A DNA stretch of 38,014 nt, from the UHGV virus genome UHGV-0042156; one strand, given 5' to 3'. This document shows, piece by piece, positions 6,146 through 10,520 of this stretch. Below the pieces are notes generated by a model. The model was not told the DNA's origin. It saw nothing but the letters and a program-made list of their open reading frames with translations, and did not search any database. The DNA is from a virus. A program made the translations under genes and the position numbers. Each line of letters starts with the position of its first letter. Positions within the stretch are counted from its first letter, which is position 1.

Positions 6146-6170
6146 ATGAAAAAGCCGCACTCAGGCGGCT
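6146..6170 (-). terminator. Rho-independent terminator after orphan gene
   Basis: Minus-strand hairpin AGCCGCCTGAGTGCGGCT followed by TTTTTC; overlaps the stop codon. Confidence 0.6.
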
Positions 6171-7143
6171 ATTTGATGTCTTGCGTGTAGCCTGTACCGC
6201 CACAGCATGAGCATTGCTCTATTGGCGCGTGAATGGTATCCATAAGCGTCGTAAGGAAGTTATCAATCATTTCCTTTAGCTCCCATTCGTTATTGGCTTT
6301 GAACCCTTTAATCGCCGTATAACCTTTGTAATTTTCTTGGTCATGTGTCATTTGGAAAATTTCAATTTCCTTCACCGTGTCAGTCTTAAAGTGCAACTTT
6401 GCTCTTTGCTTCTTGGTTCTGGCAAAAATATCCTGATATGAATATGTGTGAGGCTTAAGGAGCGGTATTATTTTTTTAACGGTAAAGCAAAATGCGTAAT
6501 CACTTGTTATTCTAGCCAGTTTGTTGTCGATGTTATCTTTTACGTGCTGGCGTACAATGTCATACATTTCTTTTGATGAAATTTCACAAGGGCTGTTAGC
6601 CCGCAAAGGCTCAGGAATTATGATGCAGTCAACAAGAGAGTGTTTTACGTTTATGTTTTTTACAACGTACCTCTCCTCCCGGAACTCAACCTGCCTAATT
6701 GCAGAGTAATTAAATTCTGGTGCGTCACGAAAATTTTCAACCTCACATACTAATGTGAATTCAACGTCAACTGGAGAGGTGTAATCAGGTGCAGTATCGT
6801 ATTTGTATTCATAAAGAGAGCCTCTGATATCCTCGTCCACTGCGTCACGCTCATTGTAACTAAGTGTCAAAGGGTATTTTTTACTCTCAAGTTCAGCATC
6901 TTTAAGCTCGTAGCGAACATTAATTCTTTCACCAGAGATAATTCTCTCAACCTTTTCAGGGTAATGTTCAATTTCAAACCAGTTTTTGTGAAAGCTGGCT
7001 TTGGGTTTAACTCCGTCAAATAGGAGATCAGCAATTTTAGATTGATGGTACTGGTAGTGATAACCGTCCTTTGCTGTGCAATCAGTGATAAAACATTTAC
7101 CAGCGTCGGTTTTAATAATGCTTATTTGCAATGCGTTACTCAT
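6169..7143 (-). CDS. AT-rich orphan protein of unknown function (324 aa), candidate accessory/defence gene
   Basis: Long ORF; preferred start MSNALQ at 7143 with GGAGGAG SD (ORF-track start 7239 lacks a usable SD); visibly lower GC than flanks; C-terminal CSCCGGTGY; no motif I recognise. Confidence 0.75.
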   Translation of the reverse strand: MSNALQISIIKTDAGKCFITDCTAKDGYHYQYHQSKIADLLFDGVKPKASFHKNWFEIEHYPEKVERIISGERINVRYELKDAELESKKYPLTLSYNERDAVDEDIRGSLYEYKYDTAPDYTSPVDVEFTLVCEVENFRDAPEFNYSAIRQVEFREERYVVKNINVKHSLVDCIIIPEPLRANSPCEISSKEMYDIVRQHVKDNIDNKLARITSDYAFCFTVKKIIPLLKPHTYSYQDIFARTKKQRAKLHFKTDTVKEIEIFQMTHDQENYKGYTAIKGFKANNEWELKEMIDNFLTTLMDTIHAPIEQCSCCGGTGYTQDIK

Positions 7144-7154
7144 ATCTCCTCCAG

Positions 7155-7182
7155 GCAAAAAGAATGCCCTCACATCGGAGGG
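7155..7182 (-). terminator. Terminator-like hairpin upstream of orphan gene
   Basis: Minus-strand hairpin CCCTCCGATGTGAGGG followed by CATTCTTTTTGCC. Confidence 0.5.
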
Positions 7183-7278
7183 CAAAGAAGATTTCCAATA
7201 ATCAGAACAAGTCGGCTCCTGTTTAGTTACGAGCGACATTGCTCCGTGTATTCACTCGTTGGAATGAATACACAGTGC

Positions 7279-8352: not shown

Positions 8353-8613
8353 TCAGTTGTTTTGATTTCCGGAGCCTGCCGCGTAAATGGCTACGTTTGG
8401 CAGGCAAATACTTCCACTGCATTCTTCTTCCTTCTTGCAGCGAAGGCTTCCGAGTGATGCTGCTTTGTCTGCTCTGACGCAACCAGAGAGCTTTAGCGCA
8501 ATTTTTCGCGCCAGTCGCTGTTCTTGCATTGCCTGCTCACGTTGAGCCTGTCTGCGTGCTCTGCGGCGATTTCTGGCGTTATCGTCAGCCAGATATGTAA
8601 TGACTACTGTCAT
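8353..8613 (-). CDS. N: N-type transcription antiterminator (P22 gp24-like)
   Basis: 86-aa ORF with N-terminal arginine-rich motif (NARNRRRARRQAQRE); MTVVITY start and LPNVAIYAAG resemble P22 gp24; first gene downstream of nutL. Confidence 0.7.
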   Translation of the reverse strand: MTVVITYLADDNARNRRRARRQAQREQAMQEQRLARKIALKLSGCVRADKAASLGSLRCKKEEECSGSICLPNVAIYAAGSGNQNN

Positions 8614-8762: not shown

Positions 8763-8810
8763 TGCCAATCTGTTCCGTTTGGCTACCAGCTTCCTGCTGA
8801 TGGCTTAAAG

Positions 8811-8893
8811 ATAACTTAGGTTATAGGTGTGGTCAATAACCTAATTTATATTTTGTGGTAAATAAGTTATAAGTGATGGATAACAAAGGTATT
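8811..8893. promoter_or_regulatory. OL operator cluster / pL region
   Basis: Three 14-bp sites ATAAC-N4-GTTAT: ATAACTTAGGTTAT (8811), ATAACCTAATTTAT (8836), ATAACAAAGGTATT (8880); same consensus as OR. Confidence 0.5.
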
Positions 8894-9027
8894 TTATTTT
8901 TGTAAATGTTGCTGATTGATTGGTGTTTGAGGGCTTGCGTGCGGGGTGAAGGTGTTACCTTTGGCTTGATGCTTGTCTATGATGAGGATGGTTGATTGGG
9001 TGGTGAACGGCAGGGAAAGAAAAACCC

Positions 9028-9117
9028 NNNNNNNNNNNNNNNNNNNNNNNNNNNNNNNNNNNNNNNNNNNNNNNNNNNNNNNNNNNNNNNNNNNNNNNNN
9101 NNNNNNNNNNNNNNNNN
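9028..9117. other. Run of 90 N (assembly gap or masked sequence)
   Basis: Literal n characters; flanked on both sides by ccc. Confidence 1.
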
Positions 9118-9142
9118 CCCGGCGCTGAGGCCGGGTGTTTTT
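9118..9142. terminator. Terminator hairpin (lambda tImm-like) abutting the N-run
   Basis: CCCGGC-GCTGAG-GCCGGG then TGTTTTT on plus strand; on minus strand the same hairpin follows the stop of the 9141..9437 gene, with its T-tract (aaagaaaaa at 9017..9025) on the other side of the gap. Confidence 0.5.
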
Positions 9143-9437
9143 AGTCCTTTCTATTGCTTAGCATTTCGTCGATTTCTAAGTCAATACGATATTGATCTAT
9201 TGCTTTTCTCTCGTTTGGGGTTGGTATTTTATACTGTTCAATTAGATCTGTTGTGTATTTTATTTCATCTAATGTGATTTTTATATCAGAGAGAATCTCT
9301 TTTATATCAATTAGATGCTCTTCTTCTTTTGCGCGATTAGAGCTATGTTCAATCATTTGAGATAGCTTTTTGCTAATGCTTAGCAAAACAAAAAGAATGA
9401 TGACCAAAACAACAACAAAAACTATCAGAAATTCCAT
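9141..9437 (-). CDS. Small single-pass membrane protein co-transcribed with cI (candidate exclusion/abortive-infection protein)
   Basis: 98-aa ORF, N-terminal hydrophobic helix (EFLIVFVVVLVIILFVLLSI) then charged coiled-coil; GGAGGG SD 3 nt before ATG; very AT-rich; occupies the rexAB slot. Confidence 0.7.
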   Translation of the reverse strand: MEFLIVFVVVLVIILFVLLSISKKLSQMIEHSSNRAKEEEHLIDIKEILSDIKITLDEIKYTTDLIEQYKIPTPNERKAIDQYRIDLEIDEMLSNRKD

Positions 9438-9477
9438 TATCCCTCCGCACTTCCGTAAGTCTTCTTCTGATTATCGG

Positions 9478-10185
9478 TTACCAACTATGAGACGACCAGA
9501 ATACTCTGCCAATAATCCTTACGGTTTCATGAAATTCATCTCTATCCATTACTTCATCCGGGTACTCTTCGCGATTTATTGATCTGATTATCACCGATGT
9601 AGGGGTGGCGATTAATGTTTTTACTCGTAACAAATCAGACTGGCAAATAGCGTAGGTTTTACCATCTCTGATTGTGGTATCTTGCGTGTTAACACCAACA
9701 ACATCGCCATCGTGAAGCGTTGGTTCCATGCTTTGCCCTACAACCCTAACTAGCTTGGCTGATCTTTCAGATACTCCCATCTTTTTCAGATAGTGCTTTC
9801 TGAAAACCAAAGAGAACTCCGATGATTCCTCTAGCTCGCAGCTACCGCTTCCAGCTGAAAGCGAAACGTTAAGAAGAGGCAACGCAACAAACTCGTCATC
9901 GTTTCTTTTAATGTCTTCCCATACCACAGCTTTTAAAGATGACTCACGGACATTGGATGGTTCTTCATGTGCACCATCCCTCATTTCACCAATACCAGAA
10001 CTAAGCCATTCAGGGCGCACTTTTAAAGCATTGGCTAATTCAACCATCTTGCGAGATCCGTTTGTTTTACCGGACGACATCTTCTGTATGGCTGGCTGAG
10101 ATATTCCAACCATGTCAGCAAGCTGTGATTGTGATACCCCAGCTGAGCTCATGGCTGCATTTAGTCTTTCTGCGAATGTTTTCAT
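9478..10185 (-). CDS. cI: CI-type repressor (HTH plus S24 LexA-like autopeptidase domain)
   Basis: 235-aa ORF; N-terminal HTH (SQSQLADMVGISQPAIQKM); C-terminal Ser/Lys dyad context (VGQSMEPTL ... RVK); divergent from cro across an operator region. Confidence 0.9.
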   Translation of the reverse strand: MKTFAERLNAAMSSAGVSQSQLADMVGISQPAIQKMSSGKTNGSRKMVELANALKVRPEWLSSGIGEMRDGAHEEPSNVRESSLKAVVWEDIKRNDDEFVALPLLNVSLSAGSGSCELEESSEFSLVFRKHYLKKMGVSERSAKLVRVVGQSMEPTLHDGDVVGVNTQDTTIRDGKTYAICQSDLLRVKTLIATPTSVIIRSINREEYPDEVMDRDEFHETVRIIGRVFWSSHSW

Positions 10186-10196
10186 ACCACAAATCT

Positions 10197-10272
10197 ATAA
10201 CTACGGTTATCCAAAGTAAAATAACAAAGGTTATTGCTATTTTTTATAACTTGAGTTATCTTTGGTTATAAT
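10197..10272. promoter_or_regulatory. OR operator cluster with pR -10
   Basis: Three ATAAC-N4-GTTAT sites at 10197, 10221, 10246 (24-25 bp spacing); TATAAT at 10267..10272 upstream of cro. Confidence 0.55.
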
Positions 10273-10295: not shown

Positions 10296-10520
10296 ATGAA
10301 TTTAGTAATTCAACGAGCCTTGAAAATTGTCGGTAGCCAAAAGCGCCTTGCCGACAAGTGTGGTGTAACGCAGCCAGCAGTACACAAATGGCTGAAAGGC
10401 GGATTGGTCTCTCCAGAGAAAGTTACCGCCATCGTTAACGCCACTGGAGGGCAGATCAAGGCTTACGAAATTCGCCCCGATTTGCCACACCTGTTTCCAA
10501 AACCGAATCAGGCAGCATAA
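10296..10520 (+). CDS. cro: Cro-like HTH regulator
   Basis: 74-aa ORF from MNLVIQRALKIVGSQKRLADKCGVTQPAVHKW; AGAGG 7 nt upstream; ORF-track start 10275 would lie upstream of the predicted transcript start. Confidence 0.75.
   Translation: MNLVIQRALKIVGSQKRLADKCGVTQPAVHKWLKGGLVSPEKVTAIVNATGGQIKAYEIRPDLPHLFPKPNQAA

Follow-up and report, generated by a model that had tools for sequence, protein, structure and literature searches.

A small membrane-anchored protein encoded behind the cI repressor of a lambdoid prophage as a candidate lysogen-expressed exclusion factor

We analyzed a 98-codon gene, orf98, located directly behind the cI-type repressor gene in a 38,014-nucleotide viral sequence (UHGV-0042156, hereafter the window), and its sequence, position and conservation point with high confidence to a real, lysogen-expressed accessory ("moron") gene of the immunity operon. 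From structure models and the charge pattern around its single hydrophobic helix we strongly infer a bitopic inner-membrane protein whose constrained part is directed towards the cytoplasm. As to its role, an exclusion or defence factor is the best single guess, to which we would assign a probability of about 45%. Genes that occupy the cI-N interval are expressed in all lysogenic cells, and time and again they have proved to be phage-exclusion or lysogeny-stability factors. If orf98 encodes such an exclusion factor, it would extend the short list of inner-membrane exclusion mechanisms by a new protein family and, probably, by a new binding target; if not, it would be one more hypothetical moron. 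Databases already list the gene as a hypothetical protein and place it in a PHROG of unknown function, and cargo in the cI-N hotspot is of a well-known kind; new, as judged from sequence comparison, are the recognition of a coherent family and of its conserved placement behind six immunity types.

The genomic context of orf98 in the window comprises the following features, ordered outward from the gene.

9141..9437, minus strand: orf98, with ATG start and TAA stop, 98 aa, member of phrog_18389, RefSeq WP_000394869.1
9438..9477, minus strand: spacer of 40 bp between cI and orf98, carrying the SD GGAGGG at 9441-9446
9478..10185, minus strand: cI-type repressor gene, 235 aa (HTH_3, 7.8e-07; Peptidase_S24, 1.4e-17; phrog_4 transcriptional repressor, 4.5e-53)
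10196..10260, no strand assigned: oR, three ATAACnnnnGGTTAT-type operator palindromes 24-25 bp apart, overlapping the pR candidate and the inferred pRM
10243-10272, plus strand: pR candidate TTTATA-18-TATAAT, consensus score 10/12
10296..10520, plus strand: cro-like repressor gene, divergent from cI (phrog_35, 4.6e-27; PGAP start from L005)
9118..9135, no strand assigned: tImm-like bidirectional intrinsic terminator with a GC-rich stem, 5 nt past the orf98 stop, also a site of the plus-strand scan
9028..9117, no strand assigned: run of 90 N, between the terminator stem and its T tract
8808..8892, minus strand: oL operators at 8810-8825, 8836-8851 and about 8866-8892, copies related to the oR palindromes
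8836..8808, minus strand: pL candidate TTGACC-17-TATCTT, from the promoter scan
8353..8613, minus strand: N-like antiterminator gene with the arginine-rich motif DNARNRRRARRQ (phrog_271, 3.2e-30; alignment)

Read along the minus strand, the order is oR/pRM, cI, orf98, terminator, oL/pL and N. The two operator regions have the repeat families D1/D2 and the inverted repeats I1, I3 and I4 in common; the N-like gene constitutes the left border of the cI-N hotspot, and to the right of cI lie the cro-like, cII-like, O-like and primase-helicase genes. An earlier note on this DNA had reported the open reading frame on the cI strand, 40 bp behind the end of cI and preceded by a GGAGGG SD, all of which is correct, and this strong SD stands 3 nt before the ATG. 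The same note called the two genes translationally coupled, a description that we would not retain: a gap of 40 bp that contains a separate SD points to co-transcription, and it is two distant homologues that have a 1-nt gap. Its comparison of the layout with the rexAB lysogen operon agrees with our observations, orf98 being located between oL and oR on the cI strand with no terminator-like site detected between cI and orf98 in the scan of the window. From this arrangement the co-oriented orf98 is very probably co-transcribed with cI. No pRM was recovered by the consensus scan of the window, and this promoter is placed from the layout; promoters of this type are typically weak and activator-dependent, so that such a miss is not strong evidence against it. 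A sigma-70-like site with a 9/12 match lies inside the 3' end of cI (9512..9484), in a scan in which promoter-like sites numbered 4 against 4.6 expected by chance. The Rfam and tRNA scans of the window came back empty, and the inverted repeat I13 across the cI/orf98 junction gave an RNA fold no better than that of shuffled sequence (z = +0.51).

The presence of a tImm-like terminator at the end of the gene, also proposed in the earlier note, is borne out by the hairpin 5 nt past the stop, although in the window this stem is separated from its U tract (minus strand), which resumes at 9020-9027, past the run of N. The E. coli MS 115-1 chromosome, 100% identical over both flanks, is continuous at this position and reads through the stop, 5 nt, CCCGGCC-loop-GCCGGG and UUUUUCUUU; MS 115-1 and other genomes present a hairpin of -13.7 kcal/mol and then the same tract. 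An insertion hidden by the 90 N was rejected on the length of the MS 115-1 locus (658 bp, compared with 661 non-N bases in the window, where "ccc" alone is duplicated) and on the IMG/VR contig L007, which bears the same sequence and ends 3 nt past the orf98 stop. As these comparisons suggest, the run most likely marks a gap left in a draft assembly at the hairpin, and the orf98 terminator is real.

The base composition of orf98 is extreme, as the earlier note had remarked, with 30.6% GC (GC3 28%) against 43.5% in cI and 47.4% in the window. In DNA so rich in A and T a spurious or non-functional open reading frame within the spacer region has to be considered, especially as the sole annotation is "hypothetical protein" and the family is small. 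By our own calculation, however, a 98-codon open frame would arise by chance at this composition with a probability of about 3e-4, and the comparison with the Citrobacter allele yields an overall dN/dS of 0.17, with regional values of 0.26 (membrane anchor), 0.38 (linker) and 0.066 (C-terminal hairpin). Homologues with a common motif are also kept down to 30% identity, and an SD is present before every one of those examined. On these sequence grounds the spurious-frame reading is effectively refuted, and orf98 is a genuine protein-coding gene under strong purifying selection; the low value in the hairpin indicates that selection acts mainly on this cytoplasmic part.

Two segments of the encoded protein could be delimited.

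9372..9434, minus strand: membrane anchor, codons 2-22 (EFLIVFVVVLVIILFVLLSIS), from hydropathy and an AF2 helix of pLDDT 87-92
9144..9308, minus strand: acidic helical hairpin, codons 44-98, from alignments, the dN/dS of this region and the AF2 helices 45-68 and 74-96

The N-terminal TM helix and the charged helical domain that the earlier note described were both recovered. Residues 2-22 reach a 19-residue Kyte-Doolittle mean of 3.4, and the core of this anchor is devoid of charged residues and nearly devoid of polar ones. Beyond it the protein is helical, with heptad-like hydrophobic spacing in the hairpin helices and a net acidic soluble part (18 D/E vs 11 K/R). Two AlphaFold models concur (pLDDT 81-82) in an anchor helix running on into a stalk and then the hairpin, the segment at about 37-44 being variable and weakly predicted. 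The hairpin carries the family motif I[KR]Y[TV]TDxIExYK[LI]PxxxERxxIDxxxxDxEI, with YKIPT (69-73) as its turn. Topology prediction, which the earlier note had suggested as a check, places the N-terminus outside and the C-terminus inside by the positive-inside rule, because the anchor is flanked by ME before and KK after; the acidic N-tail and basic C-flank recur in every family member.

This architecture bears directly on a membrane-permeabilising role, in which orf98 would be a RexB-, holin- or type I-toxin-like effector forming a coiled-coil oligomer that depolarises the infected cell. A single TM followed by a heptad-patterned helical domain could drive oligomerisation, and such a function would suit both the architectural argument of the earlier note and the analogy with RexB at the same site. 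Nevertheless, the TM lacks charged residues, and has hardly any polar ones, that could line a pore, and its hydrophobic residues interchange freely across the family alignments; these features make a RexB-like channel or a holin-like pore unlikely, and selection is concentrated in the cytoplasmic hairpin and not in the TM. The gene lies outside the lysis cassette, holin and lysis genes being found elsewhere in the prophage, and Pfam and PHROGs gave no holin or toxin match. Furthermore, 98 aa with a structured domain are unlike type I toxins, no Rfam RNA was found in the window, and constitutive expression from pRM would need a partner, none of which is conserved. We therefore consider permeabilisation improbable.

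Database searches defined a small family to which only an unassigned profile corresponds. The orf98 protein matches phrog_18389, to which no function is assigned, over its full length (E = 5e-62, 207 bits, residues 1-98 on profile positions 1-98 of 98), and so do all 17 aligned relatives. A word-indexed search of 5.8 billion proteins returned only 11 clusters, from E. coli and Citrobacter wherever a source is named, and comparing the family profile exhaustively with 1.84 billion representatives added 14 proteins of 94-126 aa, all with an N-terminal TM helix. In the alignment of 17 sequences (the window protein, two close homologues and 14 representatives at 50% identity) the architecture is common to all, and the motif is found in most and is degenerate in the most divergent. 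The absence of a recognised family, as stated in the earlier note, was confirmed by Pfam, NCBIfam and PADLOC scans, which produced sub-threshold matches only; those to DUF4446, DUF948 and DUF3784, which combine an N-terminal TM with a coiled coil, and to MscL were set aside as compositional. A match to the ZorB/MotB TM region (PADLOC-DB 2.0), at best 2.4e-4 in two of the 17 members and 0.0089 for the window protein, was judged to reflect hydrophobic-helix bias. The PHROGs scan of orf98 and 17 relatives hit families of unknown function exclusively, none annotated as superinfection exclusion, holin or toxin. No relative of solved structure was found in the PDB, fold searches return nothing or generic long helices, and our literature search found nothing on this family or class of protein. 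Two pattern-based scans of 185,579 GTDB species representative genomes and an IMG/VR search with P0014 revealed no further homologous loci, and the additional loci from a metagenome scan were all nearly identical and from E. coli; one candidate from that scan (L053) was a false positive, a 222-aa tail-like protein sharing the motif DIRYTTDLI.

The strongest pattern emerged when the positions of the homologues were compared, a survey of the region downstream of cI that the earlier note had also proposed. Homologues 35-76% identical to orf98 lie 1-40 bp behind repressors with HTH and S24 domains in six immunity types, the window included, with the following gaps between cI and the homologue.

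Window: 40 bp
Citrobacter freundii L040: 15 bp
L037: 12 bp
L038: 14 bp
L044 / L045: 1 bp
L046: 20 bp

In all six loci that are long enough, again counting the window, an N-like gene comes next (L044 was left out of this count, its contig stopping about 260 bp past the gene). A hairpin with a T-run terminator follows within about 50 nt of the stop in six of seven loci, and the alleles are richer in A and T than their own cI in seven of seven. The repressors themselves are only 6-40% identical to the window cI, and their DNA-binding domains 4-41%. Between the window and Citrobacter the small protein retains 76% identity against 22% for cI, and between the window and L046 these values are 43% and 6%. 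A position kept repeatedly behind unrelated repressors argues for selection for expression together with the repressor, and likewise against a function tied to a particular repressor sequence.

At finer scale, the gene behaves as a mobile unit within otherwise related immunity regions. Of 5426 complete E. coli genomes, 99 (about 2%) carry orf98, always in the chromosome and adjoining the repressor, while the window cI allele (at least 95% identity) occurs in 106 genomes and the oL segment in about 900. In SH2026Stx1 (cI 93% identical in nucleotides) and PA28 (79%) orf98 is lacking, and similarity with the window ends precisely at the cI stop codon; in SH2026Stx1 the position is occupied by other cargo, including a DUF3024 protein. 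By sequence, orf98 and its terminator together behave as a self-contained, AT-rich cassette inside a hotspot already known to be mosaic, and the cassette displays the usual marks of a moron, namely absence from close relatives, a deviant base composition and its own terminator.

The close attachment to cI leaves room for a different reading, in which orf98 would modulate lysogeny or induction, the membrane-tethered hairpin acting, like Hex, to adjust the stability of the repressor or the signal for induction, or, in a variant, coupling the state of the envelope to the lysis-lysogeny switch. All lambdoid members are obligately linked to cI-type, S24-cleavable repressors, and the E. coli counts of orf98 and of its cI allele nearly coincide (99 vs 106). 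A precedent exists in the pRM-cI-hex operon of phage 434, from which Hex is made with the repressor; Hex excludes a heterologous phage, inhibits RecA-stimulated repressor cleavage and also stabilises lysogeny (PMC3564112). The operon positions of hex and orf98 are analogous, yet Hex has 158 aa, its open reading frame apparently overlaps cI and membrane association is not mentioned (PMC3564112), so that size and, apparently, architecture differ, the two proteins being compared here in these two respects. Moreover, close cI alleles function without orf98, and the protein is much better conserved than the repressor in both comparisons given above; conservation reaching far beyond the partner cI speaks against a repressor-specific interaction. 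We regard the modulator and its envelope-coupling variant, taken together, as unlikely.

The most distant relatives, with 30-34% identity, from Pelagicoccus (L042) and an uncultured contig (L043), have no adjoining repressor, and their neighbours proved uninformative. Such occurrences away from repressors indicate that the domain is not intrinsically a phage-immunity function, and they are among the points in favor of a lysogenic-conversion factor without relation to phages. In this reading orf98 would be a small bitopic regulator that, like many small membrane proteins, binds and modulates a protein of the host inner membrane, for instance a transporter, a sensor kinase, a protease or part of a stress system. 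Small membrane regulators typically combine an N-out/C-in anchor with helices in the cytoplasm, and the weak sub-threshold Pfam matches to DUFs all share the N-terminal TM and coiled coil. Against this, the enteric members are strictly kept in the site best known for anti-phage genes, and the rarity of the gene (99 of 5426 E. coli genomes, no hit from the two pattern-based scans of 185,579 species representatives) fits arms-race cargo and not a general fitness factor. A role in host physiology is accordingly a doubtful alternative, which we hold well below an exclusion function in likelihood.

The proposal of an exclusion function draws on the known occupants of the site, since the cI-N interval is a mosaic hotspot documented for lysogen-expressed defence genes, among them rexAB and bstA (PMC8585504). 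Similarly to lambda rexA-rexB (pRM-cI-rexA-rexB-tImm), orf98 occupies the interval from cI to oL/pL, shares the strand of cI and is followed by a terminator, and in both cases the unit includes a membrane component. Unlike rexAB, it is a single gene, whose product combines a lone TM with a cytoplasmic hairpin; RexB, in contrast, has four TMs and acts with the soluble sensor RexA. No sequence similarity to RexA or RexB appeared in the Pfam, PHROG and PADLOC scans. The analogy with rex put forward in the earlier note is consequently sound for position and expression logic and less so for the channel and depolarisation component, given that the hydrophobic anchor makes a RexB-like channel less likely. 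BstA, a soluble protein of roughly 300 aa, differs from the membrane-anchored 98-aa product of orf98, and homology between them was not found. The resemblance lies in the arrangement, since bstA in the Salmonella prophage BTP1 is also a single accessory gene behind diverse repressors with its own Rho-independent terminator (PMC8585504). In lysogens BstA is expressed at a high level; it localises to the sites where phage DNA is replicated, and it is accompanied by aba, a DNA element for self-immunity (PMC8585504). Because rexAB, bstA and hex are all lysogen-expressed from this slot and each excludes heterologous phages, protection is the best guess for orf98 as well.

Regarding the mode of action, T4 Imm, HK97 gp15, P22 SieA and lactococcal Sie2009 are small inner-membrane exclusion proteins thought to block DNA entry, and their genes sit elsewhere in the respective genomes, not in the cI-N slot. 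By analogy, orf98 most plausibly works like these proteins, from which it differs in that its conserved domain is predicted to be cytoplasmic. For SieA the assignment as an inner-membrane superinfection-exclusion protein is documented (PMC10883804). No profile similarity to the SieA, SieB, Imm, gp15, Cor, Llp or Sim families was detected in PHROGs for orf98 and 17 relatives, and no sequence or fold similarity to known exclusion or defence proteins was found for orf98 in Pfam, PHROGs, PADLOC or the fold searches.

Taking these elements together into a putative mechanism, orf98 would be transcribed leftward with cI from pRM, and also from pRE during establishment, the transcript halting at the hairpin terminator just past the gene, and its protein would be made continuously in lysogens. 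The featureless hydrophobic helix would anchor it with one or two residues outside, and a stalk of variable length would hold the acidic hairpin, with its tip YK[LI]P...ER..ID, at the cytoplasmic face of the membrane. There it may act through protein-protein binding, the target being either a host inner-membrane component or a component of the incoming phage. Interference with DNA entry or with an early membrane-associated step of the superinfecting phage seems the most likely action, and sensing of such a step followed by abortive infection a less likely one; the predicted cytoplasmic location of the conserved domain makes masking of a periplasmic receptor unlikely. More speculatively, orf98 may found an unrecognised class of single-gene defences linked to the repressor operon, in which the hairpin captures the machinery for ejection or DNA entry of an incoming phage, or else an early phage protein associated with the membrane. 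Such a capture device would be neither a receptor mask nor a pore, and, equally tentatively, would be a module portable across at least six lambdoid immunity types.

The family offers a clean, strongly selected single-gene candidate, and one of its carriers, MS 115-1, is a defence-model strain. The hosts of orf98 comprise P22-like prophages (in MS 115-1 and H19), a lambda-like Red/Gam prophage and an Stx1a-converting phage, and O26 and O111 STEC strains are among the carriers. An assignment of the gene to the Stx1 phage H-19B was considered and rejected: the copy in strain H19 belongs to another prophage, which is P22-like and degraded.

Homologues of orf98, the 98-codon gene lying behind cI on the minus strand, were also identified at two loci far removed from this setting, as follows (30-34% is the identity range for the two together):

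L042 5001-5351, Pelagicoccus sp. (Verrucomicrobiota): orf98 relative, 30-34% identity
L043 1229-1570: orf98 relative, 30-34% identity

Both relatives exhibit the architecture of orf98, in which a TM segment is combined with the YKLP...ER hairpin, and both are located outside lambdoid immunity regions; one adjoins an acetyltransferase and unknown genes, while the other comes after a SHOCT-domain protein, with an IS200-like transposase gene two genes further downstream. This placement outside lambdoid immunity regions indicates that the domain is older and broader than its use by prophages. A 75-aa variant (P0010, hit H49) from E. coli strain 3CM (NZ_CM137008.1) keeps the hairpin domain and carries a different, non-hydrophobic N-terminus (MITGVWKYRGKST...), so that the allele has either been truncated or rearranged or else encodes a form that naturally lacks the tether. 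The metagenome scan also returned the following protein, which was rejected as a family member, its DIRYTTDLIQNWERAFGIP being a chance match to the family search pattern:

L053 72-740: 222-aa phage protein containing DIRYTTDLIQNWERAFGIP, followed by tail-fibre-like ORFs

Two further genes, both matching families of unknown function, were detected:

L040 5324-5530 (Citrobacter freundii CP057863), opposite strand: 68-aa ORF, phrog_3975 (8.9e-36)
Window 6169-7239, minus strand: 356-aa ORF, phrog_20113

The 68-aa ORF, flanked by the orf98 homologue on one side and a lambda-type N gene on the other, is additional cargo of the same cI-N hotspot. The 356-aa ORF, situated within the early-left (pL) operon and bearing a cysteine-rich C-terminus (...QCSCCGGTGY...), is another uncharacterised accessory gene of the window prophage.

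Downstream of orf98, three features of the window deserve description:

9028-9117: run of 90 N, between the terminator stem and the U tract
8840-9027: interval of about 190 bp, from the terminator to the operator cluster oL
8353-8613, minus strand: N-like antiterminator gene, 1-nt deletion at about 8365

Comparison with identical complete genomes revealed no extra sequence at the site of the N run, a 'ccc' duplication being the sole difference, and an IMG/VR contig with the same sequence ends 3 nt past the ORF stop; the N run probably marks a place where draft assembly broke off at the GC hairpin. The adjacent 8840-9027 interval contains no ORF and is common to about 900 E. coli genomes, with or without orf98. 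Its minus strand, that of the presumed pRM transcript, is strongly C-rich and G-poor (plus-strand GC skew +0.54 to +0.58), and by this composition it resembles a Rho-utilisation region that would reinforce the intrinsic terminator. The deletion in the N-like gene, seen in alignment against three related prophages, gives the protein the C-terminal end ...AAGSGNQNN in place of ...AAGYRKSKQLTAR, and the identical copy in the E. coli MS 115-1 chromosome is frameshifted according to PGAP; the prophage may therefore be defective in antitermination.
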